Shown: positions 9,993-33,599, counted from the first letter of the stretch. The stretch: 64,000 nt of DNA from Pyrinomonadaceae bacterium (GCA_036559885.1 DATBSH010000320.1:1565-65564); one strand, 5' to 3'. The notes: generated from the sequence alone by a model not told the origin. Made by a program: numbers and translations.

Positions 9993-11684
9993 GTGAAGAA
10001 TAGAGCATCATCACATTTAATAATCATCCTGATGATACTTGCGCTGGAGATTGCAGGATACATCGCAGTGCATCGCGCGGGACTGCTGCGCGGATATGAA
10101 ACTCCAGTTATTGGTGGGGTGCGTGATCTGCTGATGTTTCTACCTCTAATCGTGTTAGCACTCTGGCTCTCCAGGCAAATGCGTTTCGGCGGCAATTGGG
10201 TCCTCTATACAACTGCGATATTGCTGTTTGCCTTCGGTATGCTGATTCAGTATCGCTTGTACAGTGACCCCGAATACAACGCGCGCAACAAGTCTGCTGC
10301 TCGCGAAGAAAAAATGCAGGCGCTGAGGATGCGGTACATCATGGAGAACTATGAGCCGCTGAAGAAGCAGATGATGGGCTTGCCGCCAACGCCGGCGCAA
10401 CCTATCGACATCGACAAGCTGCCCCGCAAAGAATCGACGTATTCACTCTGGAACGCAATCACTTCAGGATCCACCTGGATCCCGATTTTTTCCTTTTTGG
10501 CTTTTGCCCTTGCCTACTCTTTTTGCGTACGTGACGGGTTCCTGCTTTGGCTACAACGCAATAGCTTCATTATTGTTCTGCTGACACTATTGCCACTTTC
10601 AATTGCCGTGGTTACTTCAAGTGCTGGTAAAGCGCTCGGCAATATGACTCCCTGGGAGCCCTCAAAGATTCCGTTTCTTGTCGGCTTCGCCGGCATACTT
10701 ACTGCACGTTACAAGGATCTCGCGGAAACATATTGGGGAGTCCCGAGGGCGCGCGATATCGTGCCGCTGCTGGTAATGGCGGCACTTCCCTTTGTTCCGT
10801 TTTTTGCGCTCAAAGATTTTGGCCAAATGCTGATCTTCAGTGGCGCATACACGACGCTTTACCTGGTTGCGGTTCGGCGCTGGCCTCAGTTGCTACTGTT
10901 CGTTGGTTCAGTACTGCTGGTTATCAGCATCCTTGTTGTAGGGGCATTGCCGCGTGATGTGCAGGAGAAGGTTCCTCTCCTCCCAACCATTGCACGACCG
11001 ATCGGGACAGCCCTTCCTTCACGAATTCAACAGCGCTTTCACCTGTGGCTGGACGGATTCGATCCGCCGTCGCCCGAAGTCTCCTGGTGGAAAAAGGATT
11101 ATGAAGAGGCGCTGAATGAGAATCCCAAGTTACGCGAACTCGCTGAGCTGTCGCCAGCGATGCAAAAGTCTGTAAATGTAGACATCTGGTTCGACAAGCT
11201 AGCGTTTCAACCGGCGCAAGCTGTTTTCGGAATTGCGTCGGGCCGCGACACCGGGCGCGGATTCGGGCTCGGGTATCCGGAAGTCATCCCCATTGCCGAT
11301 TCCGATTATGTATACGCCGCTGTTGCCGAGGAAACCGGCTTGGCCGGAGGCGCTGTTGTGATGCTTGCCGTAGTCATATTTGTGATTGCGGGTGTTCGCA
11401 CTTCGCTCGAAGCGCGTGATATGTTTACAAAGCTTTGTGCAGCTGGTCTAACTGCATTCGTTGGGTTTCAAGCGTTGGTGAACGTGGGTGGTATTCTGCG
11501 GGCGCTGCCAATGACAGGAATCACGCTGCCGTTTGTCAGCCATGGAGGGTTTAGTCTGATCACGAGCTTTGCAATGCTCGGAATGTTAATGGCCTTCTCA
11601 AATCGCAACGCTCGTGATCGAGTGATTGCCGAGCGCGCGCCGACGAAAAATGTAACTCCCCTAAAGCTGGAGGCAGTGGAATGA
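9993..11684 (+). CDS. SEDS-family peptidoglycan polymerase (FtsW/RodA/SpoVE), unusually long
   Basis: About 10 TM helices; conserved DSDYVYAAVAEETGL and TGITLPFVSHGGFSL motifs. The track ORF starts at ATG 9858, 68 nt inside the PBP gene. I prefer GTG 9993 after the octamer-repeat spacer, but the start is uncertain. Confidence 0.85.
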   Translation: MKNRASSHLIIILMILALEIAGYIAVHRAGLLRGYETPVIGGVRDLLMFLPLIVLALWLSRQMRFGGNWVLYTTAILLFAFGMLIQYRLYSDPEYNARNKSAAREEKMQALRMRYIMENYEPLKKQMMGLPPTPAQPIDIDKLPRKESTYSLWNAITSGSTWIPIFSFLAFALAYSFCVRDGFLLWLQRNSFIIVLLTLLPLSIAVVTSSAGKALGNMTPWEPSKIPFLVGFAGILTARYKDLAETYWGVPRARDIVPLLVMAALPFVPFFALKDFGQMLIFSGAYTTLYLVAVRRWPQLLLFVGSVLLVISILVVGALPRDVQEKVPLLPTIARPIGTALPSRIQQRFHLWLDGFDPPSPEVSWWKKDYEEALNENPKLRELAELSPAMQKSVNVDIWFDKLAFQPAQAVFGIASGRDTGRGFGLGYPEVIPIADSDYVYAAVAEETGLAGGAVVMLAVVIFVIAGVRTSLEARDMFTKLCAAGLTAFVGFQALVNVGGILRALPMTGITLPFVSHGGFSLITSFAMLGMLMAFSNRNARDRVIAERAPTKNVTPLKLEAVE

Positions 11685-13147
11685 GCGATAACGCAAAAGC
11701 CTTCACCATTCGAGCTTCTGCCCTTTCTGATCGCGGTCTTAATGAGCGACGACCTCTCAACGAGGATTCTTTTCTCGCTGACGTCGATCGATCCATCTTC
11801 GCCGTGGCTGACGGGGTGGGAGGCGCTGAAGCGGGTGAAGTAGCCTCACAAACGGCAATCGAGGTGCTAGACGAAGCATTCCGTCATCAAGAGGACGGCG
11901 CAGACGTCGAAGACCTGATGGAACTGGCCATTCAACGTGCCAACGCTTCGATTCACCAGATGGCCCAGGAGCACGCAAAGTTTTCTATGATGGCGACGAC
12001 TATCGTAGCCCTTCATCTGGACGGGAACGTGGCTACCTTTGGGCACGTCGGTGATTCACGACTCTATCGTCTAACGCCTGACGGCAAACTCCACCGCGAA
12101 ACAGAAGATCACTCGGTCGTTGAAGAGGAGGTTCGCGCTGGAAGGATGACCGCCGAACAGGCTGCCAATCATCCGAGTAAGAACGTAATCAGTCGAGCAC
12201 TTGGCGCTGAGGACACTGTTGAAGTCGACATGAAGACAATGGACGTCGAAGAAGGGACGGAGTTCCTGTTATGCACTGACGGCATCACGCGGCATGTGTC
12301 AGATAACGAAATTCGGCAGTTGCTCATCGTAAACGATGATCTCGAGTCAACCTGCGCCGAACTTAAACGCAGATGCTATGAGCGTGGCGCTGAAGACAAC
12401 CTAACAGTGGTCGTCGTGCGTGCAGGAAAGCGGGTGCCCATTGAAGCTCGAACTGAAGAATTTGAGTCAACGATATCGCCGGATCACTTGCAGCCCGAGC
12501 CTCAAGCCACTGCGCCGGCCTTTATTCCTGCTTCGCGCATCGCCTTTCCTGCTCCGAGCGCAGACGGCGCCGCCGTCGAAACGAATAGACCCGTGGTTGT
12601 TGGAACCCCTCCAAGCAAATCAACGGGTATTGGAAAATTCTTCGGCTTGCTATTCGTGTTGCTGCTCGTTGGGGCTGCGTTTTACGCGGGTGCTCGTTAT
12701 CACGAACGAGTGCCCTTTCTCGCAGCGATGAACAACAAGCCGACGCCGCTTCCCTCCCCCACTCCTATACCCGAAGATCCAATTCTGACCTTTGAGCGTA
12801 GTCGCCGCGAAGTAGATCGAGACCCGCACAACTGGCTAAACACACAGATTCCGAAAGAGCTCGTAGGTTCCGGTGTCCAGAGTGCCCTGGACTCTCCCAA
12901 CCCGGAGTTCTTGTATTTGTATGGTCGCGCCAACCTGTTGACGGGAAACCCGGATGAGGCGTACCGAGCGTTTGAAGCCGCCATCACGAGAGCCGGTGCC
13001 GGCGAATCCGGTACGTTTGGAACAATCAAGAAGGAAGCAGCTCTCGGTCTTGCCGCGGCAAGCCTGAAGACGCAAGCGGGCCGACAGAAGGCGCTACTTC
13101 ATTACGACGAAGCGATGAAGCCTCCTGGCGCGTCAGGTTCCCCTTAG
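11681..13147 (+). CDS. PP2C-family Ser/Thr phosphatase with a C-terminal TM segment and an extracytoplasmic tail
   Basis: PP2C motifs NEDSF, AVADGVGG, LCTDGIT, DNLTVVVV. TM segment FFGLLFVLLLVGAAFYAGA. Start overlaps the SEDS stop (ATGA). Confidence 0.9.
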   Translation: MSDNAKAFTIRASALSDRGLNERRPLNEDSFLADVDRSIFAVADGVGGAEAGEVASQTAIEVLDEAFRHQEDGADVEDLMELAIQRANASIHQMAQEHAKFSMMATTIVALHLDGNVATFGHVGDSRLYRLTPDGKLHRETEDHSVVEEEVRAGRMTAEQAANHPSKNVISRALGAEDTVEVDMKTMDVEEGTEFLLCTDGITRHVSDNEIRQLLIVNDDLESTCAELKRRCYERGAEDNLTVVVVRAGKRVPIEARTEEFESTISPDHLQPEPQATAPAFIPASRIAFPAPSADGAAVETNRPVVVGTPPSKSTGIGKFFGLLFVLLLVGAAFYAGARYHERVPFLAAMNNKPTPLPSPTPIPEDPILTFERSRREVDRDPHNWLNTQIPKELVGSGVQSALDSPNPEFLYLYGRANLLTGNPDEAYRAFEAAITRAGAGESGTFGTIKKEAALGLAAASLKTQAGRQKALLHYDEAMKPPGASGSP

Positions 13148-13207: not shown

Positions 13208-14743
13208 ATGTCAGAACTAAAGCTTCAGCAAAGCAGACTCGACGGCCGCTACGACATTTTGGAGTGTCTCGGACGTGGCAGCTACGCCGAAATATATGTG
13301 GCCAACGACAATGCTGCGCCGCAGGGAGCACCCCGAACAGTCGTTATCAAAGCGCTAAATCTAAATCTGCAGGACACGCCAGACGCAGAACTTGAACGAA
13401 CGCTCGTTACGAATTTTCAAAACGAAGCAGTTGCACTAGACCGCGTGCGCCACGCCCACGTCATCAATCGTCTCGGACACGGCACCGCCATCGATCTCGC
13501 CGGCACAACGTTTCATTACATTGTGCTCGAGTATTTGCCGGGCGGCGACATGGGCCGCCTGACGCGTGCTCGCCCTCTGTCGATTGAAAGGGCGCGCTCC
13601 TATCTCGAGCAGGTGTGCTCTGGATTAGCACATGCCCACAAGTGCGGCGTGATTCACCGAGATATCAAACCGCAGAACCTATTACTTACCGCCGATCAGC
13701 AGATTGTGAAGATCGCTGATTTCGGAGTAGCTCGTCTGGATGCACACGACGGGGCGATCACTCGAGTTGGTACGAACATTTATTCGGCGCCGGAGCACAA
13801 CCCACTGGTTCATACAGGTCAATTGGATATCGCGGCAATCGCTTCGTCCCGGGACCATCTGACGCCGGCGGCGGACATCTATTCGCTGGCTAAGACAACC
13901 TACACGCTCCTCGCTGGTGAATCACCACGACGGTTTGCACAACACACCATCACGGAATTACCGGCGCCGGTTGCCCAACAACCATGGGCGGATGCGGTTT
14001 TACGGGTTTTGAAAAAGGCTACTCAGAATCGACCTGATCAGCGATACCAAACTGTAGAACACTTTTGGGACGATCTTTACGAGGCAAGTCTGCCGCCGAC
14101 AATTCGGTTGCCTACCTTAGCAGAGGTTGTTGAGCAGCGCCGAAAACCAAGCGAAGATCTTGTCGTGGCGCAAGAAGTGCTCACGCAAGCAGCACCGCCC
14201 ACAGCGCAATTCGCACCCGAAACAAATAGTTCCGCCCGCTTGGAAACACAGGCGCAGCCGCGTCCTCGGATAGTAGTACCGGTTACCCCCGAAGAGCGGC
14301 AACAACTTCGGAGGCGCCGCAGGTTTTTGTTAAGTCGAAGACAAGCCAAACCTAAGGAACCGGAGATTCAGTCGGTGCTGCCGGCTAGCCGTGGTAAGCG
14401 CGCCTTGGTTGCGGTCGGTTTGATTCTCGCGTTTTCTGGAATGTTACTCGCAACGCACAAGTACGTGACATCTCGTTGGAATCCGCTATCGACAATCCCG
14501 CAGATCGGGCAGACTTTCATCGTCGGTCGAGAAGGTGTTACAACGACCGACGTAAAGTTGCGGCCGGACGCCAGTACCGCCAGACCTGAGATCGGACTGG
14601 CGGAACTTGGCTCCAAAGTGAAAGTCATCAGTGAGAACAACAACTGGTACGAAGTTCAAGTACTTGAACACGGACGTCCGAAGTCGGATCCTTACTCGTC
14701 TGACCGGGGCTGGCTCAACAAGCGATTCGTAAAATTTGAATGA
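13208..14743 (+). CDS. Hanks-type Ser/Thr protein kinase with a TM segment and a C-terminal SH3b-like ectodomain
   Basis: GRGSYAEIY Gly loop, VVIKAL Lys, HRDIKPQNLL, DFG, SAPE. TM segment ALVAVGLILAFSGMLLA. C-terminal VKVISENNNWYEVQVL is SH3-like. No PASTA repeats seen. Confidence 0.9.
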   Translation: MSELKLQQSRLDGRYDILECLGRGSYAEIYVANDNAAPQGAPRTVVIKALNLNLQDTPDAELERTLVTNFQNEAVALDRVRHAHVINRLGHGTAIDLAGTTFHYIVLEYLPGGDMGRLTRARPLSIERARSYLEQVCSGLAHAHKCGVIHRDIKPQNLLLTADQQIVKIADFGVARLDAHDGAITRVGTNIYSAPEHNPLVHTGQLDIAAIASSRDHLTPAADIYSLAKTTYTLLAGESPRRFAQHTITELPAPVAQQPWADAVLRVLKKATQNRPDQRYQTVEHFWDDLYEASLPPTIRLPTLAEVVEQRRKPSEDLVVAQEVLTQAAPPTAQFAPETNSSARLETQAQPRPRIVVPVTPEERQQLRRRRRFLLSRRQAKPKEPEIQSVLPASRGKRALVAVGLILAFSGMLLATHKYVTSRWNPLSTIPQIGQTFIVGREGVTTTDVKLRPDASTARPEIGLAELGSKVKVISENNNWYEVQVLEHGRPKSDPYSSDRGWLNKRFVKFE

Positions 14744-15650: not shown

Positions 15651-16910
15651 TTAATTCTGCGCCGCAGCCGTTGTTGGTTTTGAGGTTCGTAACTCGGCGA
15701 TGAGTTCTTTTAGAAGCGTTGGTACTTGTTCGTCCTCGAGGTAGCCCTTTCCAAGGATTTTAATGATCCGGCGTTCCTTTGTTTCGCCGGTCACTTCTTT
15801 CAATATCGCACGCGCAAACGCTGCTACGACACTCGGATCAAATTGCGTCCCGCTGTTCTGACGAAGATCTCTTACAACATCCTCGAATGATCGCCGTCGC
15901 CGGTACGGCCGATCTGTGGTCATCGCGTCGAACGAATCAGCCAACGACACGATCTTCGCCCCAAGCGGGATCTGCTCGTCGACGAGCCCATCCGGATAGC
16001 CACGTCCATCCAGCCGCTCATGGTGATATTTCGCCATCAGCGGAATATCTGCGTACGGATGATTGATTGGCGCGAGTATTTCGTAGCCCGCAGATGGATG
16101 GCGGCTAAGCTCACTCGACGTCTTCGCATTGATGTGATACGGCGCATTGATAATGTCGCGATCCACAACGAGCTTACCTACATCGTGCAGATACCCCGCG
16201 ATTTGAATGCCCTCGACTTCCTCTTCGCTCCAACCCATCTCCCGCGCAATAATTTCGCTGTACTTACCAACGCGTTCTGAATGGCCCTGTGTGTATTTGT
16301 CTTTGATATCGATCGCCGCAGCGAACGCTCTCACAGTATCGCGGTATATTGCCCGCAACTCCTCATACAAACGACGGTTCTCTTCAGCCCGCTGCGCAAC
16401 TTGATCAAGCAGCTGGTGAGTGTGAATCCCAACACCTATATGCCGCGCCATCGCGCGGACAATCTCGAAGTCCTCTGGAGTAAAGTCGTCACCACTCGCT
16501 TTATCCCCGAGCAACACAAAACCTGTCAACGCTCCGCGAACGGTCATAGGTATTACAATCTCGATACCACTTGTTTCCAGCACGCTGCGGTAGCGGGCGA
16601 TGAAACCTGTGTCGTTCGCGTTCTTGACAAGTAACGAAGATAGGCCGGCGCTTAGCAGTGGATCTTTCTCTTCTTCCCGAATCTGGAAGTCAGATATAGC
16701 GTCCTTTTCCAGGCCCCAGATCGCGACACAACTTAGTGAGTCGTTGGAAGAGCATTCAACGACCGCACCCCGCCGCAACGCCAACGTTCCCAGGAGTAAA
16801 TGCATTGACGTCTGGACCATTTCATTGAAGTCGCCGGTATTAGCAACCTCCTGGCCCAGATCAGCGAGCGCGCCGAAGGTGTGGATCAGTTGCTGATTCG
16901 ATTGGTCCAT
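15651..16910 (-). CDS. GAF-domain HD-GYP c-di-GMP phosphodiesterase
   Basis: HD-GYP signatures HDVGK and HHERLDGRGYPDGL, with an N-terminal GAF-like region. Confidence 0.9.
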   Translation of the reverse strand: MDQSNQQLIHTFGALADLGQEVANTGDFNEMVQTSMHLLLGTLALRRGAVVECSSNDSLSCVAIWGLEKDAISDFQIREEEKDPLLSAGLSSLLVKNANDTGFIARYRSVLETSGIEIVIPMTVRGALTGFVLLGDKASGDDFTPEDFEIVRAMARHIGVGIHTHQLLDQVAQRAEENRRLYEELRAIYRDTVRAFAAAIDIKDKYTQGHSERVGKYSEIIAREMGWSEEEVEGIQIAGYLHDVGKLVVDRDIINAPYHINAKTSSELSRHPSAGYEILAPINHPYADIPLMAKYHHERLDGRGYPDGLVDEQIPLGAKIVSLADSFDAMTTDRPYRRRRSFEDVVRDLRQNSGTQFDPSVVAAFARAILKEVTGETKERRIIKILGKGYLEDEQVPTLLKELIAELRTSKPTTAAAQN

Positions 16911-16922
16911 CTGTGATGGTAA

Positions 16923-17300
16923 CTAGTGAACTGTCGGGAGAGCCGGCAAAACAGAAAGTCCAGACAGAGCTTCTTTCTCGTCTTTTGCCAGGACCACATG
17001 TCTGGTCAGCCCAAGCATGTCGAAGAGCGCGACGGTTTGATTGTTTACATCTGAGAACACGATTTTCGCGCCGTGCTTCTCAGCCAGACCGATTATGCCC
17101 AGAAGGATCGAGATGCCGATGCTGTTAACCAGTTCGGTATCGCTAAAGTCGATAACAAGCGCATGACAGCCAGCGTCGAGTTGGCGACGGCATTCACGTT
17201 CGATCTTTTCGCCTGTCAGTTTATTGAGGTAGTCGCTCGCGTAAACAACCGCGGTGGTGCCAACACAGTGCGACCGGATGGCAATGCTGCTCGTTTCCAT
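16923..17300 (-). CDS. STAS-domain anti-sigma-factor-antagonist-like protein
   Basis: ORF 16923..17345. The ATG at 17300 (METSS...) has GGAGGGAG upstream. STAS core ALVIDFSDTELVNSIGISILLG carries the conserved phosphorylatable Ser. Confidence 0.85.
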   Translation of the reverse strand: METSSIAIRSHCVGTTAVVYASDYLNKLTGEKIERECRRQLDAGCHALVIDFSDTELVNSIGISILLGIIGLAEKHGAKIVFSDVNNQTVALFDMLGLTRHVVLAKDEKEALSGLSVLPALPTVH

Positions 17301-17349
17301 TCGAGAGCTCCCTCCGCTTCGAATGAGTTCAGGATAAAAAAGCAAGGGG

Positions 17350-19617
17350 TTAGGTAGAACTACCGCGTAGATACTTTGTCATTCGAAGGCGAGTGCCATC
17401 GTCTACTCGCTCGAATTCGACCTCATCCATTAACGACCTGATTAGCTTCAGGCCCCATCCGCGCCGTTCTTCCGCAAGGTCAGCCGCTTCATGGTTTTGA
17501 TTGTTTGCGCCACCGCTGATGTTAGTTGGCACAACGCCGCGGCTCGAGATGGTGACGACTAATCTATCACTTTCGACGCGAAAGCGCTGATAAATTTTTC
17601 TATCGGGGCTGAAGCTGTGCTCGGAGGCATTAATACACGCTTCTACAATGGCCGTCTTGATCTGGTTGATAGCCTCGGGCCGAAAGTCTAGACGACGCGC
17701 GATTTGTTCGACCGTATTAGCGGCCAGTAGTTCGTTGTCCTCTCCCATGGGCACAACCACGAGGAACTCATCCGCTGGACCCATTGGTCCCATGGGCCGG
17801 GCAGCCTGAGCGCCTATACGGTCGAGCAGTAGCTCAACTTGCGGGCGACTCGAGCTAAAGGCGCCTCGCCGTGCCAACCGTGATCCGGCCTCATCAGTAA
17901 ACCCTTCGTTCGATAGCAGCCAGATCTGATGCCGTCTAAACCCCGCCCGGCCAGCCAGGCGTTCCAGCCGTTCGCACCAGAGCTCGGCCAGTTCCGGATC
18001 AACCTCTAATTTGGCTTCGATATCGGCCACGAGCCACACAACTTCCCGAGCATCGGTGTACACGCCCTCCTCGAACGTGTGCGCGACCATGCACCGGTTT
18101 TCGTCGACCACCTGTCGCAACTCTGGATCGAAGGATATGGCGCTGGCTACGTGAACAACTTGCGGTAACGAGATTAGCGCTGTCTCTGCCTCTAATACTG
18201 TCGCGGTTTCTTCCTGAGTGGCACCTTTCAGTCTAGCGCTGAAACGTGAATAGTCGAAAAGGATTGCGGGCAGACGTTGTCCATCAAATTGGGCCAGCAG
18301 TTCACGCAACTCGTATCGCGCGACCCGCTTGTACTGGCGGGCCATGGTGTGCGGCGCGCGCTTTAGGGAATCAGTTAACGTGTCAGTAACAACGAGAGCT
18401 CGCGCGTCGTTGAGGACATTCAAACGGTAGCGGGTTTTCAAGTAATCTTTCCACGCTTGTGGTCCATCAGCGAACTCAATGTAATTACCGTCCCAGTTTA
18501 CGAACTCTTGTATATGTAGATGGTGCAGGATGTTTTCGAGTTCGTCGCCCCTGATGTGCAACCGTCGACGACATGCTTCAAATGATGCAGCACGCTGTTC
18601 GGAAGCAAGTGATTCCCACAACAAACGAATCAGGTTTAAGCGAGTGTCGGCTGCCGGCGCTGCCTCCTCGAGCAAATCAGCAAAATGATTTTGCAGTCGC
18701 CCGCCGAGCAGCTCATCGATGTATAGACGTTCACAATCGAGATAAGAAGTTAAAGCCGTATTTTTCTCGCGGGCTGCATGAAGGAATGTAGTAATAAAGA
18801 ATGGACTACAGTTGAACTGTTGAACTAATAGGTCGCGCGCTTCCTCGCTAGTAGAAACCTGTTGCCGTCGCGCCAGATGCTCTACCAACATTCGCGCTTC
18901 TTCAACGCTCAGTTGTTCAAGTCGCAGCACATCCAGCGTTTCAAAGTCAAGCTTGGCATTGTAGGCTGACCTGAGGATCTGTCTACGTAAGCCGGCGAGA
19001 ACATATGAGACTGTCGCCCGACCAAACACGCGCAGAATTTCTGTGCCGAGAACAACCGTTCCATTTAGGTTTTCCGCAAGCTGAGCACCATCAAGCATCA
19101 CAAACGCGCGCCCGGATTTCGCCGGAATTCTCTGCGGCGCACTCAGACAAAAACGGACTAGCGCTTTGTCATCGTTACTGAATCTCTGCCGTTCGTAAGC
19201 TTCTACGAGTTGTTGGACCCATTCAAAATCAGCTGGAGGGGTTAGTTCAAGTAGATCGTGCAAGGTGAGCGCTGCATGGCATAGCGATGGCTCATCTCTC
19301 CGATAAGCGATGTATTGTTGCAGGAACGCATTTAGAAATTCGATTGCGGCACTAACTGCCGTTGTCTCGGTTCGCGTAAATGCGAAATAGATCGGAATAA
19401 CATCGGAGCGCTGGTTGAAGACTTCATCGTAAGCTTGTCGAAGCAGTTCCGAAACACCGGCCGACGGCTCCATCAACAGCAACAATCCGCGCCCCTGGTT
19501 CTCGCGTGATGCCTGTGAGACAACTCGCTGCAACTCCTCGGCGCGACCGACAAACTCCTGGCGGGCTACGCGCCCGAGAACGCGGCGAATTCTTCCGCTG
19601 GAGCTTGAACCGTTCAT
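17350..19617 (-). CDS. 755-aa multidomain protein: degenerate AAA_16/STAND-like N-terminus, PD-(D/E)XK-like middle region, C-terminal RsbW/SpoIIAB-type Ser kinase (HATPase_c)
   Basis: N-terminus FVGRAEEL...LLLLMEPSAGVSELL. Middle WLVADIEAKLEV...IWLLSNEGFTDEAGSRLARRG. C-terminus IVEACINASEH...RGWGLKLIRSLMDEVEFERVDDGTRLRM. Confidence 0.85.
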   Translation of the reverse strand: MNGSSSSGRIRRVLGRVARQEFVGRAEELQRVVSQASRENQGRGLLLLMEPSAGVSELLRQAYDEVFNQRSDVIPIYFAFTRTETTAVSAAIEFLNAFLQQYIAYRRDEPSLCHAALTLHDLLELTPPADFEWVQQLVEAYERQRFSNDDKALVRFCLSAPQRIPAKSGRAFVMLDGAQLAENLNGTVVLGTEILRVFGRATVSYVLAGLRRQILRSAYNAKLDFETLDVLRLEQLSVEEARMLVEHLARRQQVSTSEEARDLLVQQFNCSPFFITTFLHAAREKNTALTSYLDCERLYIDELLGGRLQNHFADLLEEAAPAADTRLNLIRLLWESLASEQRAASFEACRRRLHIRGDELENILHHLHIQEFVNWDGNYIEFADGPQAWKDYLKTRYRLNVLNDARALVVTDTLTDSLKRAPHTMARQYKRVARYELRELLAQFDGQRLPAILFDYSRFSARLKGATQEETATVLEAETALISLPQVVHVASAISFDPELRQVVDENRCMVAHTFEEGVYTDAREVVWLVADIEAKLEVDPELAELWCERLERLAGRAGFRRHQIWLLSNEGFTDEAGSRLARRGAFSSSRPQVELLLDRIGAQAARPMGPMGPADEFLVVVPMGEDNELLAANTVEQIARRLDFRPEAINQIKTAIVEACINASEHSFSPDRKIYQRFRVESDRLVVTISSRGVVPTNISGGANNQNHEAADLAEERRGWGLKLIRSLMDEVEFERVDDGTRLRMTKYLRGSST

Positions 19618-19635
19618 GGTTTTCGGTGTTCTGAG

Positions 19636-21309
19636 CTAATCGCGATAGAAGACCGTGCGATTCTTACCCTGGCTCTTCGCCTGGTACAGAGCACGATCGG
19701 CTGCGGCAACAACTGTTTCCGCAGTGTTCACGATTTCAGAGAACGTCGAGACGCCAACGCTGACACTTACGCGTCCCAACGGTTGCGACTTTCCGTGGGG
19801 ATAATGGGTCGTAGCGACGCGACGCCGGATGCGATCGGCAATCGCGCCAGCTTCGTCGACGGAGGTTTGGGGTAACAGGATACAAAATTCTTCGCCGCCA
19901 TATCTCGCCGGGACGTCGGCCGAGCGCAACGTCGCCTTCAAGCAGTGCGCCGTAATCTGCAACGCAAGATCACCAGCCTGATGTCCGTTGTTGTCGTTGT
20001 ACGCCTTGAAATCGTCGATGTCGATCATGAGGAAGCTCATCGCGTAGTTGTAGCGCTTCGATCGATTCAGCTCTTCAGTTAGACGCTCCTGGAGGTAACG
20101 CCTGTTGGGCAGGGCTGTGAGCGGATCTGTAATCGACATCAGCTGGAACTCTGTCGCACGTTCCTGCCACTCGGCACGCTCCAACGCCACTGCTACCTGT
20201 GGCCCGATGATCTCCAACAAGCTAAGGTCAACCTGATCGTAAGAGCTGCCATCAGATTTATCCGTTACATTGAGGACCCCAATCTTTCTGCCCCCGATTA
20301 TTATTGGATAACTGATGAATGATTTCGTCTTGTACATTCGTTCAGCCGGAGCGGCAGTGAGTCCTTCAGTATCGAGGTCCCGAACCATCAGAGCTTTGCC
20401 CGTCTGTAACACCTCACCTGAGATCCCCTCACCCATCTGCAGGCGTCCGACTGAAGTTGGGTCGGTGGCAAATCCTACGGCTGCCTTAACGATCAGTTGA
20501 TTGGCCGTCTCATCAAACACCATGAGCGATGCACGTTCCGATTGCATCAGCTCTCTGGAATTGGTGAGGATTGATTCGTAGGTTTTGGCTGGGTTATCTG
20601 AACTTATGCGCTCAAGAAAATGTTGTAACGAATCAGCGAACCGTGATCGGTATTCGAGTTCGCTTCGCAAGCGCGCGACTTCCTGCTCCAATTGATCATG
20701 TCTATCAACGGCAATCTCGGGTTTTGCTTTAACCCCGGCAGTAGCCTTCTGCGAATTAGCCTGATTGGTCCCATTCGACGATGCTGCTGTGACCTTGCCT
20801 GCGGCTCGGTTCACACGCTCGGAAAGATGATGCAATCGTTCAGTCTCGGCAAAAACGATGTTCTTAAAGACGTCCGTTGACCCAAGCTCTTGCAAATCTC
20901 CACTGCGTAACCGCTCAACCAGGTTCTGGTAATCCGCACTTTTAACAAACGCGCGACCGCCAATTACTGCAAGGTTGCGCTTACTCCCAATCTCTACGGG
21001 CTGAGTAAAGCATTGAAGACCTGCGTGGCACTTGTATTGGACCATCGTACCCGCGCTCATCGCTCGCTTGTGTGCCTCGCCGCAATATGGATCACACAAC
21101 TTCACGTAATCGGGGGACGATTGGAATGCCTCGCAAATCGAATTGTTATTCGACACTGCAATGGCCGGCGGTTGTCGCCCGTTGACTAAGAGAAGCGACA
21201 AACCTGCAGCCGCTGCCAACGCTTCCTGGGTTTCTTTCCAACCTAAAGGGGCGTCTTCCGGATGTTCCTGCACAATGGCGGAACCCGATTTGGGGGATTT
21301 CTTGACCAT
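19636..21309 (-). CDS. PocR-like sensor, coiled coil, GAF and GGDEF diguanylate cyclase
   Basis: Cys-rich N-terminus (SICEAF...LCDPYCGEAH...YKCHAGLQCF), GAF region, active-site GGEEF, and the I-site RSAD five residues upstream. Confidence 0.9.
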   Translation of the reverse strand: MVKKSPKSGSAIVQEHPEDAPLGWKETQEALAAAAGLSLLLVNGRQPPAIAVSNNNSICEAFQSSPDYVKLCDPYCGEAHKRAMSAGTMVQYKCHAGLQCFTQPVEIGSKRNLAVIGGRAFVKSADYQNLVERLRSGDLQELGSTDVFKNIVFAETERLHHLSERVNRAAGKVTAASSNGTNQANSQKATAGVKAKPEIAVDRHDQLEQEVARLRSELEYRSRFADSLQHFLERISSDNPAKTYESILTNSRELMQSERASLMVFDETANQLIVKAAVGFATDPTSVGRLQMGEGISGEVLQTGKALMVRDLDTEGLTAAPAERMYKTKSFISYPIIIGGRKIGVLNVTDKSDGSSYDQVDLSLLEIIGPQVAVALERAEWQERATEFQLMSITDPLTALPNRRYLQERLTEELNRSKRYNYAMSFLMIDIDDFKAYNDNNGHQAGDLALQITAHCLKATLRSADVPARYGGEEFCILLPQTSVDEAGAIADRIRRRVATTHYPHGKSQPLGRVSVSVGVSTFSEIVNTAETVVAAADRALYQAKSQGKNRTVFYRD

Positions 21310-21612
21310 CCAACAAAGTTCGCGTGCGTCTGGGCTCGAGTTGAAGTCGGCGCTTCGGAAATCACAGGGATTTCACGTTGACTCAAAAAGCTGAAAGGCA
21401 AAGCGCGTTTAGGCAATCAGTATAAAATTCAAACTCAAGCCTTACAACTACTTAACCAGCGTCTCTTCCTTCTTCACCTCAACCGCACGATAAAGGCTGG
21501 AATGTACCCTACAGGTAAATGTCGAATCGGGTTGGTTTTTCGCTTGAACGGCGGTTGATTTGAGGTGGGCTCTCCCTCGTAGGGATTACGAGTAGCAGGA
21601 GTGAATGGGCCC

Positions 21613-21648
21613 CCGAAAAGAAAGGCACCCTCGAACGAGGGTGCCTTT
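21613..21648 (-). terminator. Intrinsic terminator of the opp-like operon
   Basis: Perfect 13-bp arms AAAGGCACCCTCG (21621..21633) / CGAGGGTGCCTTT (21636..21648). On the minus strand they are followed by CUUUUC. Confidence 0.7.
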
Positions 21649-21685
21649 CGAGATCAAAATTACGTCGGGTCGACTCTAGGTGCTT

Positions 21686-21784: not shown

Positions 21785-22903
21785 TTAAGAATGTTGGCCA
21801 CTTTCTAACCCCGGTGCGGCGCCAGGTGCGACGTCTTCAATGTTGGGATGGTCCGGACTTATCCGAATACATGCCGCAAAGTGGTTGGGCTTTATTTGGA
21901 CCAGCTTTGGAACGACTTCTTTGCAGGTCTCAATCATATAGGGACATCGAGTGTGGAAGCGACAGCCCTGCGGCGGATTGATAGGCGAGGGCACATCGCC
22001 TTCGAGAACTATGCGTTGTCGAGTTGCTTCGATTTCCGGATCCGGAACGGGAACAGCTGAGATCAAGGCTTTCGTGTAAGGCATCAATGGCTCGGCATAT
22101 ATGTCCTTGGCGTTAGCAAGTTCGACAAGCTTTCCCAAATACATCACCGCCACGCGATCCGATACATGCCTGATGGCTCTCAGGTCGTGCGAGATGAAGA
22201 GATACGTCAGATGCTTTTCTCTTTGCAGCCGTTCTAACAAGTTCATGATCTGAGCTTGAATCGAAACGTCGAGCGCAGAGATCGGTTCATCAGCAACGAT
22301 AAAATCAGGATCGACAGCAAGCGCGCGCGCAATTCCAATTCTTTGACGTTGCCCGCCGGAAAACTCGTGTGGATACCGTTTGATGAAACGCTTGCTCAAA
22401 CCAACGGTTTCCAATAACTCCTGCACGCGCTTCTCCGCTTCTTCACCACTTGCCAGATCGAATGTCTCAAGTGGTTCCCCAACGATCTGACCGACAGTCA
22501 TTCGAGGATTCAACGAGGCATAGGGATCTTGAAAAATGATTTGCAGATGACGTCTTTGCTCGCGCAGTCTTTTTCCAGACAGATGCGCAAGATCCGATCC
22601 CTTGTACAGGACCTCTCCCGCAGTCGGAGGAATAAGATGGAGAACCGCACGGCCCAACGTCGACTTGCCGCAACCAGATTCGCCTACGAGTCCGAGTGTC
22701 TCGCGTGCATAGACATCGATCGTAACGCCATCAACTGCCTTCACCACGCGCTTTTCGGTGTTAGTTCCGACTAGCTTGTCGACAAGGCCACCTCCACCAA
22801 GATCGAAATGAACCTTTAGGTCTCGAATGGAGATGAGCGGTTCGTCACCAGCAGCTTGCGGCGGCGGAACACTCGGATTTGCGATGAACTCCTGCGTGCT
22901 CAT
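21785..22903 (-). CDS. Oligopeptide/dipeptide ABC transporter ATP-binding protein (OppF/DppF-like) with a C-terminal extension
   Basis: Walker [10 protein letters not shown], signature FSGGQRQR, Walker [14 protein letters not shown]-terminal Cys-containing Opp-type domain. Confidence 0.9.
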
Positions 22904-22911
22904 TATGGGTT

Positions 22912-22958
22912 TTATTAGGTCTTATAGGTCTTATAGGTCCTATCGGTCCTGATCGGAC
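22912..22958. repeat. Degenerate nonamer array (TTATAGGTC family, 5 units)
   Basis: TTATTAGGTC TTATAGGTC TTATAGGTC CTATCGGTC CTGATCGGAC. The array spans the oppD-like stop codon and its last codons. Confidence 0.75.
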
Positions 22959-23962
22959 ATTTGACCTCCTGACTCAGCAAAAACCTCCTTTGCGAAATGG
23001 CACAACGAACAATGATCCGGATTCAGTTGAACAAACGGCGGAAACTCTTTATGGCAGATCTCCTCCGCCCGTTCGCATCGTGGAGCAAACGGACAACCGG
23101 GGCCTAGACGTGCGACATCCGGCGGTAGTCCCGGTATTTGATAGAGTTTTCCCTGTTCGGCAGTTGGATCAGGTACGGAGCGAAGTAAACCTTTCGTGTA
23201 CGGATTGCCCGGAGTCGCAAAGAGCTCCCTGGTTTTTGCCTGCTCGAATATCTTTCCGGCATACATCACGATCACATGGTCCGTCATTCCCGCAACAACA
23301 CCGAGATCATGCGTAATCAGAATCACACTGGTTCCGGTTTCCCGCTTCAGGCGTTTAATAAGTTCCAGAATCTGCGCCTGGATCGTTACATCAAGGGCCG
23401 TGGTCGGTTCGTCAGCTATTAACAGCTCCGGTTCGCATGAGAGCGCCATTGCAATCATCACGCGCTGCCTCATTCCTCCAGAGAATTCGTGCGGGTAATT
23501 ATCTGCCCTTTCTCTTGCGTCCGGGATACCGACCATCTCGAGCATCTTGACCGCATGTTCGTACGCCTGTGACTTCGAGTGACCGAGGTGAAGCTGCGTC
23601 ATCTCCATTAGCTGTCGCGAAATCTTTAAGAAAGGATTTAACGATGTCATCGGATCCTGAAAGATCATTGCAATGCGTCTACCTCGAACCTGACGAATCG
23701 CTTCGGTCGAAAGCAAAAGTAAATCCTGGCCATCAAAGATCACTTCACCCGAGACAATCTTGCCGGGGGGATCCGGTATAAGCCGAATGATCGAGAGGTT
23801 GCTAACCGACTTGCCGGAACCCGACTCACCAACAATACCGAGAGTCTCACCACGCTTGAGATTGAACGTGATTCCGTCAACGGCCTTCACCAATCCATCT
23901 TCCGTTTGGAAGTAGGTGCGAAGGTCGTTCACCTCCAGAAGATTTCCGTTCTTTTGACTCAT
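22940..23962 (-). CDS. Oligopeptide/dipeptide ABC transporter ATP-binding protein (OppD/DppD-like)
   Basis: Walker A GESGSGKS, signature FSGGMRQR, Walker B LLIADEPTTALD. Confidence 0.9.
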   Translation of the reverse strand: MSQKNGNLLEVNDLRTYFQTEDGLVKAVDGITFNLKRGETLGIVGESGSGKSVSNLSIIRLIPDPPGKIVSGEVIFDGQDLLLLSTEAIRQVRGRRIAMIFQDPMTSLNPFLKISRQLMEMTQLHLGHSKSQAYEHAVKMLEMVGIPDARERADNYPHEFSGGMRQRVMIAMALSCEPELLIADEPTTALDVTIQAQILELIKRLKRETGTSVILITHDLGVVAGMTDHVIVMYAGKIFEQAKTRELFATPGNPYTKGLLRSVPDPTAEQGKLYQIPGLPPDVARLGPGCPFAPRCERAEEICHKEFPPFVQLNPDHCSLCHFAKEVFAESGGQMSDQDR

Positions 23963-24005
23963 TATTTGAGACCAGACTTCACGATTATCGGAACCAAACT
24001 TATTA

Positions 24006-24047
24006 CTCTTGGCTCTACCTTCTTAGCTCTTCGCTCCTTGCTCTGTC
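24006..24047. repeat. Degenerate heptamer array (CTCTTGG family, 6 units)
   Basis: CTCTTGG CTCTACC TTCTTAG CTCTTCG CTCCTTG CTCTGTC, in the spacer between the oppC-like and oppD-like genes. Confidence 0.7.
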
Positions 24048-24084
24048 GTTTTTGTTAATTCTGTACTCCTGTCTAATCTTTTTC

Positions 24085-25170
24085 TTAAACCGTGCGCATT
24101 TGTGGATCGAGGGCGTCTCTCAATCCATCTCCCAAAAAGTTAAGGGAGAAAAGCGTAAGCGCCATCGTTACCCCCGGAAAGATCAGCTGCCAGGGAAAGA
24201 TTGCAATGTTTTGAATACCATCTGCCGCAAGACTTCCCCACGACGCTAGCGGTGCTTGCACACCAAAACCGAGAAACGACAAGAACGCTTCGGTCAGCAT
24301 GATCTGTGGAATCGTCAGCGTCGCATAGACGATCACGGGCCCTAAGGTGTTTGGCACAAGATGACGAAAGATGATTCGCGGTACGGAGACTCCGGTGGCG
24401 CGAGCCGCCAAAACGAACTCCTGGTTCTTAAGTGAGAGCACTTGGCCTCGTACTATTCGCGCCATCGTCAACCACGAAACAGAACCCAACGCTATAAAAA
24501 GCAAAGTCAACTGCCCTCGCGGTGTTTGGCTACGAAACATCGATAGCAAAACAATAACGACAATGATGTACGGCAGCGAATAAAGGACGTCGACCAGCCG
24601 CATCATCAGGTTGTCGACTCGGCCACCGAGATAGCCGGCGATTGCGCCATAGCTGACGCCGATGAGGAGCGACACGAGCGTTGAAATCACGCCGACAAAC
24701 AACGATATCTGCCCGCCCTGCAATACGCGCGCAAATTGGTCTCTTCCGGCATTGTCGGTTCCCATGGGATGCAACCAGGAAAACTTCCCATCGGGCCCGG
24801 TAAACGGCGGAAACGATTTCACCAGGCGAATGTCGTCTGTTGGAATGTAATCTGGAGTGAAACCAAGTCCGCGCTTGATAAGCGTTGGCCCGATGATAGA
24901 GGCAATAGTGATCAATGCGACGACGATGAGTCCGAATACGGCCAACTTATTTTTCAGCAACCGTCGCCAGGCATCTCTCCCCAGCGAAGTTCCGCGAACA
25001 TAACCGACCTCTTCCGGTCTCACATCTTCGGCAATAGCCATTTCCGGAGAAACGTGAATGGTGTTTGGGTCGCGAGCCGTCAATGGTGATTGCGACGACG
25101 GACCATGTGGCGTGAGTACCGATTCCGTCGATTCAATCTCTGCTGGTAGTTTTGAGGGCTTCTCATCCAT
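24085..25170 (-). CDS. ABC transporter permease (OppC/DppC-like)
   Basis: Six TM helices and an EAA-like loop (LAARATGVS..IIFRHLVPN). The N-terminal ~70 aa are hydrophilic, so the start is uncertain. Confidence 0.85.
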   Translation of the reverse strand: MDEKPSKLPAEIESTESVLTPHGPSSQSPLTARDPNTIHVSPEMAIAEDVRPEEVGYVRGTSLGRDAWRRLLKNKLAVFGLIVVALITIASIIGPTLIKRGLGFTPDYIPTDDIRLVKSFPPFTGPDGKFSWLHPMGTDNAGRDQFARVLQGGQISLFVGVISTLVSLLIGVSYGAIAGYLGGRVDNLMMRLVDVLYSLPYIIVVIVLLSMFRSQTPRGQLTLLFIALGSVSWLTMARIVRGQVLSLKNQEFVLAARATGVSVPRIIFRHLVPNTLGPVIVYATLTIPQIMLTEAFLSFLGFGVQAPLASWGSLAADGIQNIAIFPWQLIFPGVTMALTLFSLNFLGDGLRDALDPQMRTV

Positions 25171-25186
25171 AAGAAAAGGACCTCGC

Positions 25187-26110
25187 TTAATACCTCACAC
25201 GAGGATCCAAAAACGCGTAAGCAATATCGACCAGCAGATTCATCAGTAGCAGCGTGATAGCGATGAAGGCAACTATGCCGATAATCAGCGGCTCGTCACG
25301 ATTCAACGAGGCCTGAATAAAGTAGTTTCCAAGACCTGGAAGCGCGAAGATGCGTTCGACCACCACAGTGCCTGTTAACAGGAAAGCTAGCGCAGGCCCT
25401 GTATACGAGATCACGGGCATCAACCCGCCGCGCAATGCGTGTCGTACAACCACAGCCCGTTCACTTAATCCTTTGGCACGAGCCGTTCGAATGTAGTCAG
25501 ATCTAAGGACCTCGAGCATTCCGGCGCGCGTCAATCGAGCGATGTACGCCATGTACACCGCGGAGAGCGTCAGCACAGGAAGAATGAGATTTCGACTCGG
25601 GAAGCCACCCCATCGAGACGGCGGCAACCAATAGAGCGTTAGCGAAAAGACAAGAACGAGAATGGGCCCCAGAACGAAATTAGGCACGGAGATGCCAAGC
25701 ATCGCCAGCGCCATCGAGGAATAATCCCAACGCGAGTTTTGCTTGAGTGCTGCGATGGATCCGGCGGCAATCCCGACTATGAGCGCGAGAATATAAGCGA
25801 GAATTCCCACTGAGGCGGAGACTGGCAGCGAGCGAGCGATGATCGTGTTAACTGATTGCCCTTCGTACTTCAGCGATGTACCGAAGTCGGCATGCCGAAT
25901 GATATTCCACATGGTCCGGCCGTACTGCTGGTACCAAGGTTTGTCGAGACCATACTTGTCGCGGATGTTTTTTTCGATCGCGGGAGGTAGTTTCTTTTCA
26001 CCTGAATAGAAATTTCCAGGGGCGAGTTTGATAAGAACCCACGTGATCGAAATGACGACCAGGATAGTGGGAATGGTGACAAGAAGACGGCGGATTATGA
26101 ATCTGAGCAT
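25187..26110 (-). CDS. ABC transporter permease (OppB/DppB-like)
   Basis: MLRFIIRRLL... N-terminus typical of OppB/DppB; EAA loop YIRTARAKGLSERAVVVRHALR. Confidence 0.9.
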   Translation of the reverse strand: MLRFIIRRLLVTIPTILVVISITWVLIKLAPGNFYSGEKKLPPAIEKNIRDKYGLDKPWYQQYGRTMWNIIRHADFGTSLKYEGQSVNTIIARSLPVSASVGILAYILALIVGIAAGSIAALKQNSRWDYSSMALAMLGISVPNFVLGPILVLVFSLTLYWLPPSRWGGFPSRNLILPVLTLSAVYMAYIARLTRAGMLEVLRSDYIRTARAKGLSERAVVVRHALRGGLMPVISYTGPALAFLLTGTVVVERIFALPGLGNYFIQASLNRDEPLIIGIVAFIAITLLLMNLLVDIAYAFLDPRVRY

Positions 26111-26172
26111 TTGGCTACGACAGAGGGGTTCGTCTGTCTCAATCTTTGTTAGCTCAAGAAGTTAACATCGGT

Positions 26173-28143: not shown

Positions 28144-28346
28144 CGGAAACTCCATCCGCCCTGAGAGCATCTCGGTGGCCGGCAGCCAACCCATCTACTA
28201 CTCAAGCGAGTTAAAGAGGATACCCGCCACGTGAGGGGTCAACGCAGGAGAGACTCTCAACTTAAGCTGAGAGTTGAGTTGAACTTACCATGCGGGGAAA
28301 AGGTTTATCAAGATTCTTGAGGTCCGGTGCGCTTTACCTTGTCGTT

Positions 28347-32534: not shown

Positions 32535-32598
32535 AAAAACAGAGGCGGCCCACAGTGAGGCCGTCCCTCAATTAATGACCTTGCAGACCACGATCAGC

Positions 32599-32706
32599 GG
32601 GTCTCAGTTAGTACCGTACGCGGTAGCGTCGGGTCGGCCCTTTTCAAAAACAGGGTTGCGATTACACTCTGACCCGACGCTACCCGTACGGTACTGACTG
32701 AGACCC
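32599..32706. repeat. Imperfect ~37-bp inverted repeat with a 35-nt loop
   Basis: GGGTCTCAGTTAGTACCGTACGCGGTAGCGTCGGGTC (32599..32635) against GACCCGACGCTACCCGTACGGTACTGACTGAGACCC (32671..32706), with one mismatch and one bulge. Confidence 0.9.
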
Positions 32707-32721
32707 ACTAAATCTCAAAAA

Positions 32722-33363
32722 CTACCGCTGCGTTCGGCGAGCTGATACCACCAGGATGATTGCGTCACCTGACGGACCAGCGTTCAACGTGCCGACTACC
32801 ACGGGTTCTCCTTCGCGCAAACTAATGTCCGTATTCAACCCCGTGTTCTCGTAATTGATAACTGGAAATCCTGTTCCGGTCTGGGCCACGTTTGTTCCAG
32901 TAACGATCGGAATACGTGCCCCAAAGCTAAACCGCTGCATCTGGACCACAGGATTACCTTCGGCATTACGTAACAATTTGACTGCCCCCACTTTGAACTC
33001 ACTAAAGCTCGGCGTAGCAGCCGTAGCTGTACCGGAGGGAGCGGCGAATGGTCCACCTATCCAGCGCAAATCCAATCGCCCTTCGTTTCTGACTCGATTA
33101 ACGAGAGTTGCAGCGAGTCTGTAATTCTTGAAAGGCAGCGCTGAGCGCAACTGTTTGATGACAGAATCGAGCGCCGCAGGCAATCTCGAGTCATCAACGT
33201 CTGAGTTTGTAGCAACGATAAGGTAAAGTTGTGTGTCGAGGTTTACCTCGGAATCAAAGGCCTGACTGGTTTGTTGCGCCTTTACAGCGGCGGCTCCGGA
33301 AGCCAAAACAACCGCAACCAAAAAGGCGGATAGCATCACGCCCAGAACCTTTCGCATATTCAT
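32722..33363 (-). CDS. Hypothetical secreted protein
   Basis: ORF 32722..33561. The ATG at 33363 has AAGGAG upstream and gives the signal peptide MNMRKVLGVMLSAFLVAVVLASGAAAVKAQ. Confidence 0.65.
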   Translation of the reverse strand: MNMRKVLGVMLSAFLVAVVLASGAAAVKAQQTSQAFDSEVNLDTQLYLIVATNSDVDDSRLPAALDSVIKQLRSALPFKNYRLAATLVNRVRNEGRLDLRWIGGPFAAPSGTATAATPSFSEFKVGAVKLLRNAEGNPVVQMQRFSFGARIPIVTGTNVAQTGTGFPVINYENTGLNTDISLREGEPVVVGTLNAGPSGDAIILVVSARRTQR

Positions 33364-33599
33364 GCTCTTTAATCTCCTTCTGACTGACAAAAATAGAGTT
33401 CCTAAATGAGATGGAAGAGTGCGCCGCGAAGTTATGGGCGGACCTGACCAGGCGGCAGGAGCAGATTGCAGGGGCAGGTTGTTTTTGCTTACGGACGTTT
33501 TTCCTGCTCCTGCGTGGTGCTCCTGCTCCTGACCTCGGCGCTTGCAGGTCAGCCTAAACACGCGCTACCGCGATAAAAGTTCCCACGGCTGAAAAGAAT

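Follow-up and report, generated by a model that had tools for sequence, protein, structure and literature searches.

A recurrent four-gene cassette of Acidobacteriota that may couple c-di-GMP synthesis and degradation through an atypical RsbW-like/STAS pair

Within a 64,000-nucleotide stretch of DNA from a Pyrinomonadaceae bacterium (GCA_036559885.1, DATBSH010000320.1:1565-65564; hereafter the window, with positions counted from its first letter), four consecutive minus-strand genes encode, from 5' to 3', a PocR-GAF-GGDEF protein, a 755-amino-acid kinase-like protein that ends in an HATPase_c_2 domain, a 125-amino-acid STAS protein and a GAF-HD-GYP protein. This four-gene order is kept in more than 100 loci drawn from at least two phyla. 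We give an even chance to the proposal that they form an autonomous control cassette for cyclic di-GMP (c-di-GMP), in which a diguanylate cyclase and a phosphodiesterase would be coupled through an atypical partner switch composed of an RsbW-like scaffold and a STAS protein.

Results

A four-gene order conserved across different genomic contexts

Reading of the open reading frames of the window places the four genes 18, 49 and 12 nt apart, as described in an earlier prediction made from the DNA alone (the original prediction). A Pfam search recovered every domain named there (PocR, GAF, GGDEF, HATPase_c_2, STAS and HD_5), and all of the motifs quoted with them (GGEEF, RSAD, HDVGK, HHERLDGRGYP and DTELVNSIG) were read in the sequence. 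Direct inspection also reveals that the catalytic motifs of both c-di-GMP enzymes are intact; across 72-78 close orthologs, the catalytic and signature motifs of the cassette and the motif of the STAS protein show no variation.

More than 1,000 homologs of the kinase-like protein are present in the protein collection, and the N-terminal region of the protein resolves into 514 clusters at 50% identity, mostly of proteins 710-760 amino acids long. Gene order was compared over 167 loci, comprising 80 from GTDB species genomes (all Blastocatellia/Pyrinomonadaceae), 80 metagenomic loci retrieved with the most distant clade as seed, and seven from gene look-ups. At 131 of the 132 loci that have enough sequence, the next gene upstream of the kinase-like one is a GGDEF gene, and the STAS and HD-GYP genes both lie downstream at 103 of 110 (both are absent at five). 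The cyclase and scaffold genes are an obligatory pair; the STAS and phosphodiesterase genes come and go together. Where the genes of relatives have been called, the junctions within the cassette are short or overlapping.

Comparison of the flanking genes shows that the identical four genes occur amid unrelated neighbors at three distant loci, L163, L167 and L164, the last of which belongs to a Thermodesulfobacteriota metagenome-assembled genome. Because the four genes recur there with entirely different flanks, the cassette is an autonomous unit. The gene order, whose restriction to a single genome the original prediction had counted against itself, is accordingly conserved well beyond the window, and a chance or genome-unique arrangement is ruled out by the more than 100 loci that share it. 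Mere synteny holds as an explanation within Blastocatellia, where a peptide transporter operon lies upstream and a cluster ending in FhaA lies downstream, and L163, L164 and L167 rule it out as the whole explanation. The cassette is abundant in soil Acidobacteriota and occurs in Thermodesulfobacteriota too; the documented taxa are Acidobacteriota (Blastocatellia/Pyrinomonadaceae) and the one Thermodesulfobacteriota genome, the cluster look-up having named few distant clades.

Two-gene variants, in which the PocR-GAF-GGDEF and scaffold genes are followed by neither a STAS nor an HD-GYP gene, were seen at L135, L152, L165, L166 and L103. At L166, the next gene encodes an aldehyde dehydrogenase, and genes for an extracytoplasmic-function (ECF) sigma factor and a Hanks kinase lie 7 kb upstream.

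The RsbW-like domain and its altered nucleotide pocket

The only Pfam match in the 755-amino-acid protein is to HATPase_c_2 (E = 1.8e-18, residues 633-748), and the RsbW-like part occupies about the last 135 residues, the C-terminal fifth of the chain. Alignment of this region to RsbW (6m36) gives an E-value of 1.5e-9, and Foldseek superposes the two with a TM-score of 0.94 and a root-mean-square deviation of 1.9 Å, which identifies the Bergerat fold. Within the family alignment, the N-box is present, with E659 invariant and N663 conserved in at least 90% of members, and the G2 box (RRGWGLKLI) is conserved as well.

Residue-level alignment to RsbW and SpoIIAB revealed that the G1 box departs from this pattern: Ser692 (ISSRG, as against ADEG/RDEG) occupies the position of the Asp that is characteristic of RsbW/SpoIIAB-type kinases, so that the window protein has no G1-box Asp. 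The domain also falls short of the NCBIfam equivalog cut-offs for RsbW (58.3 bits against 145) and SpoIIAB (50.6 against 135). Since the G1 Asp is replaced by Ser692, phosphotransfer to the STAS serine is not to be taken for granted. In our reading of the sequence, nucleotide binding is probably retained yet non-canonical, and conventional ATP-dependent phosphotransfer cannot be assumed.

The STAS protein

The STAS protein matches Pfam STAS with an E-value of 2.1e-10, and alignment sets the NS60IG of its DFSDTELVNS60IG motif on the DSSG of SpoIIAA (1auz/1th8). The protein thereby combines the STAS fold with a serine in the D/N-S-x-G loop, as anti-sigma-factor antagonists do. Among 143 orthologs, Ser60 is invariant and the surrounding F..T.L[VI]NSIG[IV]SILLG is invariant or nearly so. 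On the NCBIfam superfamily model, the protein scores 33 bits and does not reach the cut-off of 53. The ATG at 17300 is preceded by a Shine-Dalgarno sequence, GGAGGGAG, and gives a length that agrees with the called orthologs; an alternative TTG start lies 45 nt upstream of it, with the frame open. In the distant cassette at L163 (10334-10981), the product of the STAS gene is 215 amino acids long and consists of two STAS units in tandem, with TE[LF][IV]NSIGIS in both halves.

The scaffold portion of the kinase-like protein

The description of this protein in the original prediction as 755 residues ending in an RsbW kinase domain captured the RsbW-like C-terminus; structural modeling adds that the whole is a fusion of a STAND-like NTPase, a middle domain and the RsbW-like domain. 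An AlphaFold2 model of the protein has a pLDDT (predicted local distance difference test) of 87.7. Over residues 1 to ~400, its best Foldseek match is PABY2304 (2qen), a Walker-type ATPase of Pyrococcus; ORC/Cdc6 and Apaf-1/CED-4 come next, and distant relatives of the kinase-like protein match Pfam ATPase_2/AAA_16 and retain the Walker A sequence GxxxxGK[ST]. In the window protein, Walker A is degenerate (PSAGVSE, with GVS for GKS/T) and Walker B reads VMLDGA, so that the 2qen-type fold is found without the GxxxxGK[ST] and acidic Walker B pair of ATPase_2/STAND proteins. Over 151 kinase-like family members spanning 31-100% identity, the set used for all tallies of the Walker A and G1 positions, the Walker A lysine is kept in 13 and lost in 138, and it is also gone from the window protein. 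Because the fold is 2qen-like and relatives keep a Walker A motif that the window protein does not, the N-terminal part is, as judged from model and alignment, a STAND/AAA+-type NTPase module whose catalytic lysine has been lost in the clade of the window protein. A Blastocatellia scaffold subclade (alignment A1; P0229 and P0247) shows the reverse pattern of degeneration, in which Walker A is kept and the N-box Asn and G2 box are lost (EACLSLSA).

Residues 405-605 have no Pfam match. Foldseek places AspBHI, MspJI, Cdn1, EndoMS and AF1548 at the top for a separate model of this region, every E-value being at least 0.01; the middle domain thus weakly resembles the PD-(D/E)xK restriction-endonuclease fold, a resemblance that we treat as a lead only. 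An anti-phage defense system, in which a STAND NTPase would be joined to a nuclease-like fold, was also considered and rejected: PADLOC was silent for the cyclase, the kinase-like protein and the STAS protein, and its hits for the HD-GYP protein were confined to weak, generic matches of the HD domain to Cas3 and Cas10.

The two c-di-GMP enzymes

Pfam assigns the cyclase PocR (E = 1.5e-13), GAF_2 (2.2e-16) and GGDEF (7e-49) domains. Residues 462-475 comprise RSAD (462), five intervening residues and GGEEF (471), which supply the active-site and I-site motifs expected of an active diguanylate cyclase. Among 119 cyclase orthologs, GG[ED]EF is found in 113 and AGDEF in the other six, and the R and D of the RxxD I-site are present in all. 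On the NCBIfam SiaD model, the GGDEF domain reaches 164 bits, under the 290-bit cut-off. Five cysteines of the PocR domain (Cys59, Cys72, Cys76, Cys94 and Cys100, including a CHAGLxC motif) are kept in at least 114 of these orthologs, a conservation suggesting that the input signal is a metal, Fe-S or redox cofactor.

The HD-GYP protein carries HD_5 (2.4e-33) and GAF (1.4e-5) domains, and its HDVGK (242) and HHERLDGRGYP (296) motifs provide the signatures of a candidate HD-GYP phosphodiesterase. The corresponding patterns HD[IV]GK and HHERxDGRGYP are invariant in 72-74 orthologs.

Co-variation among the cassette domains

Mirror-tree comparisons were made over 89 complete cassettes as partial rank correlations of pairwise distances, with the mean of the other domains controlled and 200 bootstraps taken over loci. 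STAS pairs best with the phosphodiesterase GAF domain (178 of 200 bootstraps) and next best with the RsbW-like domain, which itself has STAS as its best non-self partner (177 of 200). For the N-terminal scaffold, the cyclase PocR and GAF domains are the best partners (179 of 200). These pairings agree with the pattern of presence and absence of the cassette genes, and they give a hint that STAS may act with the GAF domain of the phosphodiesterase rather than with the cyclase.

Transcription of the cassette

Examination of the cassette boundaries indicates that the four genes probably constitute their own, separate transcription unit, because an intrinsic terminator (-26.9 kcal/mol; z = -3.8 against shuffled sequences) closes the upstream transporter operon and a non-coding leader precedes the cyclase gene. 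The single transcript proposed in the original prediction is hence probable, with both of these elements in its support. The leader, about 300 nt long, extends from the terminator to the cyclase start codon inside a 475-nt intergenic gap, and we infer that the cassette promoter sits within it. Its single weak sigma-70-like match (21447-21419) is not above chance expectation, and a search of it for riboswitches and other known RNAs gave no Rfam match at the gathering threshold or at E-values up to 1. Within the cassette, a scan for consensus promoters and terminators yielded counts that were not above those of shuffled controls.

Genomic neighborhood

The genes that flank the cassette are listed with its components in Table 1. 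Downstream, a convergent cluster that resembles an actinobacterial cell-wall signaling cluster ends in FhaA, the stop codons of the FhaA cluster and of the HD-GYP gene lying 19 nt apart. The Hanks kinase gene of this cluster spans 13208-14743. Upstream, the Opp/Dpp operon is present in all Blastocatellia loci (L001-L082); at L167, where the flanks are otherwise different, SBP_bac_5 and ABC ATPase genes lie upstream too.

That the operon lacks a sigma factor and a PP2C phosphatase, as originally predicted, holds for the four genes themselves: none encodes a cognate PP2C of the RsbU, RsbP, SpoIIE, HsbR or SiaA type. A PP2C gene is nonetheless a near neighbor, 2.5 kb away. Its product is of the Stp1/IreP type (229.4 bits against an NCBIfam cut-off of 230), and outside Acidobacteriota the gene shows no conservation with the cassette. 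Downstream sequence of 8 kb is available at 72 loci, of which 56 have an FhaA gene and 47 a PP2C gene; at L163, L164 and L167 there is no PP2C gene within 8 kb on either side. The neighboring PP2C was considered as the missing RsbU-type phosphatase and set aside on account of its Stp1/IreP type and its absence from distant cassettes, and is retained as a minor rival only; its presence at 47 of 72 loci keeps the hypothesis of cross-talk alive, though the gene lies outside the conserved unit. There is no sigma-70-family gene among the larger open reading frames of the window, and in none of the inspected neighborhoods does a sigma factor adjoin the cassette, the sole ECF sigma gene being that of L166.

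Elsewhere in the window, 51353-53881 (+) encodes a single 842-amino-acid protein with HD_5 (HD-GYP, 278-439), GAF (519-655) and GGDEF (668-823) domains, so that, 30 kb from the cassette, one polypeptide joins domains for making and for breaking c-di-GMP. An IS200-like Y1 transposase open reading frame (Pfam Y1_Tnp, 2e-7) lies at 45113-45772 (-). At 31017-35669 (-), a sigma-54-dependent response regulator (REC, Sigma54_activat and HTH_8) is encoded beside a GAF-containing histidine kinase; no other sigma-related gene was found in the window.

Table 1. Components of the cassette and flanking features of the window.
Feature	Position	Strand	Basis or remarks
Diguanylate cyclase, 557 aa: PocR sensor, coiled-coil linker, GAF, GGDEF with RxxD I-site	19636..21309	-	Pfam and motifs
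Kinase-like gene, whole, 755 aa	17350..19617	-	Open reading frame; HATPase_c_2 at C-terminus
Kinase-like protein, residues 1 to ~400: ATPase_2 (Arch_ATPase)/AAA+-STAND-like P-loop domain with winged-helix region	18418..19617	-	AlphaFold2 and Foldseek
Kinase-like protein, residues 405 to ~605: alpha/beta middle domain	17803..18405	-	Separate AlphaFold2 model, pLDDT 86.6
Kinase-like protein, residues 617-755: RsbW/SpoIIAB-type HATPase_c_2 domain	17350..17769	-	Pfam, alignment to 6m36, Foldseek
Single-domain STAS protein, 125 aa from ATG, Ser60 at SpoIIAA/RsbV phospho-Ser position	16923..17300	-	Pfam and alignment
Candidate c-di-GMP phosphodiesterase, 419 aa: N-terminal GAF and HD-GYP (HD_5)	15651..16910	-	Pfam and motifs
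Non-coding leader, presumed promoter region	21310..21612	-	No open reading frame, no Rfam match
Intrinsic terminator of upstream opp/dpp ABC (ATP-binding cassette) transporter operon; 5' boundary of cassette unit	21613..21649	-	13-bp G+C-rich stem, UCUUUUC tail
Opp/Dpp-type peptide ABC transporter operon (SBP_bac_5, two permeases, two ATPases)	21785-28194	-	Directly upstream of cassette
Cell-wall-type cluster: FHA protein, penicillin-binding protein (PBP) transpeptidase, RodA/FtsW, Stp1-type PP2C, Hanks Ser/Thr kinase with SH3 domain, FhaA	7173-15631	+	Convergent with cassette
PP2C gene	11681-13147	+	2.5 kb beyond HD-GYP gene, in convergent cluster

Discussion

In the mechanism that we favor, the kinase-like scaffold protein would be physically associated with the cyclase, an association suggested by the fact that their genes are an obligatory adjacent pair, often only a few nucleotides apart or overlapping. 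The RsbW-like domain would bind the STAS protein and probably phosphorylate its Ser60, and STAS, in one of its two states, would bind the GAF domain of the HD-GYP enzyme; binding to the cyclase seems less likely. Were the scaffold or the sensors to change state, c-di-GMP synthesis and degradation would then shift in opposite directions. Phosphorylated STAS would have to be reset by a PP2C encoded elsewhere (in Acidobacteriota, perhaps the neighboring Stp1-type enzyme) or by protein turnover.

Several points weigh against this coupling. What is observed directly is the anatomy of the genes and their conservation; each interaction within the model, phosphotransfer included, is one that we infer. 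The mirror-tree signal is weak, and shared phylogeny and unequal evolutionary rates confound it. Most of the loci come from one class, Blastocatellia, and their conservation is weak evidence because the whole neighborhood from opp to FhaA is syntenic there. The five loci that hold the cyclase and kinase-like genes only imply that the kinase-like protein must have a role independent of a neighboring STAS protein, and the conserved unit contains no phosphatase. Among the 151 family members, the residue at the G1 position is Ser in 130 and Asn in 19, with two gaps and not a single Asp. This Asp has been called absolutely conserved and hydrogen-bonds the adenine base (PMC9137472), and RsbW homologs devoid of kinase activity are documented (PMC7693655). 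Because the adenine-binding residue is never Asp in the family, kinase activity is not assured.

The altered pocket invites two other explanations, both of which we consider improbable. Under one, the RsbW-like domain would bind GTP or c-di-GMP, so that the cyclase writes the signal, the HD-GYP enzyme erases it, the scaffold reads how much c-di-GMP or GTP is present locally and STAS carries the output to a target elsewhere. The Ser or Asn found at G1 in 149 of 151 proteins (the other two being gaps) fits such a pocket, as does the strong constraint on the N-box and on an Arg/Trp-rich lid (RRGWGL), and the replacement of a carboxylate by a hydrogen-bond donor is a classic change of purine specificity. 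There is a parallel in the histidine kinase CckA, whose catalytic ATPase domain binds c-di-GMP, and the cyclase and kinase-like genes remain paired where STAS and HD-GYP are missing. However, no known c-di-GMP binding motif was identified, the conserved Glu and Asn of the N-box are most simply explained by Mg-nucleotide catalysis, and the invariant STAS Ser60 argues for real phosphorylation. If this explanation were true, the cassette would be a complete and portable local c-di-GMP circuit of writer, eraser, reader and output or feedback STAS, built on a degenerate STAND scaffold, and in its partner switch a nucleotide second messenger would take the place of a phosphatase as the driver.

Under the other, the kinase-like protein would be a binding scaffold or anti-factor lacking catalysis, and the neighboring Hanks kinase and Stp1-type PP2C would act on STAS Ser60; c-di-GMP turnover would then be linked to cell-wall growth signaling. 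The missing G1 Asp is in keeping with this scheme, and so are the convergent FhaA - Hanks kinase - PP2C - RodA - PBP cluster, which ends so close to the HD-GYP gene, and the frequency with which FhaA and PP2C genes are found downstream. A precedent is offered by the Hanks kinase PknD, which is reported to phosphorylate the anti-anti-sigma homolog Rv0516c (PMC1847690). Yet the cassettes at L163, L164 and L167 have no Hanks kinase or PP2C neighbors, and a dead kinase would not be expected to keep its N-box and G2 box so strongly conserved. The neighboring cluster is, moreover, of actinobacterial cell-wall type in its composition, and its adjacency may be plain Acidobacteriota synteny.

It is similarly unlikely, in our estimate, that the genes are merely co-located, with the two enzymes obeying their own PocR and GAF sensors and the RsbW-like/STAS pair controlling a sigma factor or other target elsewhere. 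Classical partner switches act on sigma factors, and the synteny of the Blastocatellia region from opp to the FhaA cluster means that conservation there says little. Against this stand the persistence of the gene order with wholly different flanks and in another phylum, the adjacency of the cyclase and kinase-like genes at all but one of the 132 loci scored, the joint gain or loss of STAS and HD-GYP, and the fact that no sigma factor adjoins the cassette in the inspected neighborhoods, the ECF gene of L166 lying at a distance from a two-gene variant.

The coupling that we favor would have relatives among known systems. The original prediction had pointed to HsbA and HsbD as precedent for a STAS protein acting on a diguanylate cyclase, and the literature bears this out: phosphorylated HsbA binds HsbD, and c-di-GMP rises (PMC5085249). 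Like the cassette, the HptB-HsbR-HsbA-HsbD system of Pseudomonas aeruginosa has a kinase domain of the RsbW type, a single-domain STAS protein that has a phospho-Ser, and a cyclase encoded nearby. HsbR, however, has receiver and PP2C domains within one polypeptide and takes its input from a phosphorelay, whereas the cassette has no PP2C, no receiver and no G1 Asp; HsbA also targets FlgM, an anti-sigma factor, and the Hsb module has neither a phosphodiesterase nor a STAND-like scaffold. In SiaABCD, also of P. aeruginosa, the kinase SiaB and the phosphatase SiaA set the phosphorylation of SiaC, which in its unphosphorylated form binds and activates the cyclase SiaD, all from one operon (PMC8457831). 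Kinase, STAS-like protein and cyclase are thus encoded in one operon as in the cassette, but SiaC is a DUF1987 protein phosphorylated on Thr rather than a Pfam STAS protein, the PP2C SiaA is integral, and Sia has no phosphodiesterase or large kinase scaffold. In the partner switch of Sinorhizobium meliloti, the STAS protein BgrV controls the diguanylate cyclase BgrR, as cited in PMC8457831. BgrSTUWV-BgrR accordingly resembles the cassette in pairing a partner-switch STAS protein with a diguanylate cyclase. The Bgr system differs from it in including the PP2C BgrU and the extra upstream components BgrS and BgrT, and we know of no report of an HD-GYP enzyme or a STAND fusion in that system.

Both folds, the N-box and G2 box, and the phospho-Ser position of STAS are shared with RsbW-RsbV-sigmaB and SpoIIAB-SpoIIAA-sigmaF. 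Unlike these classical modules, the cassette has no sigma factor and no RsbU/SpoIIE-type phosphatase, its G1 Asp is replaced, and its RsbW-like domain is part of a fusion. The fold of residues 1 to ~400 is that of ATPase_2 (PF01637) P-loop proteins such as PABY2304, from which the window protein differs in having lost the Walker A Lys, and we found no description of an ATPase_2-type domain fused to an RsbW-like domain. The four-gene architecture, which the original prediction did not recognize, is likewise without a description that we could find in the open-access literature, an absence that is no proof of novelty. As with HsbD, SiaD and BgrR, a kinase-type protein, a STAS-type protein and a cyclase are encoded together; the cassette is set apart from Hsb, Sia and Bgr by having no PP2C component, an HD-GYP enzyme inside it, the STAND-type scaffold fusion and a non-canonical G1 box. 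Partner-switch control of c-di-GMP enzymes is already known, and the cassette looks like an undescribed variant of it.

Partner switches are known for sigma factors and, in three studied cases, for single diguanylate cyclases, and to our knowledge a PP2C phosphatase is the signal input in all of them. The cassette would extend this logic to a module in which a synthase and a hydrolase bracket the switch, no dedicated phosphatase takes part, and a 755-amino-acid STAND-type scaffold carries a non-canonical pocket. As far as we know, c-di-GMP signaling is essentially unexplored in Acidobacteriota, a major phylum that has been studied poorly. If the coupling is real, the four proteins would make up a compact system for the reciprocal control of c-di-GMP synthesis and degradation, and would bear on whether a GHKL kinase domain works without the canonical adenine-binding Asp. 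The cassette is widespread and cleanly delimited, and these ideas can be tested with four proteins.

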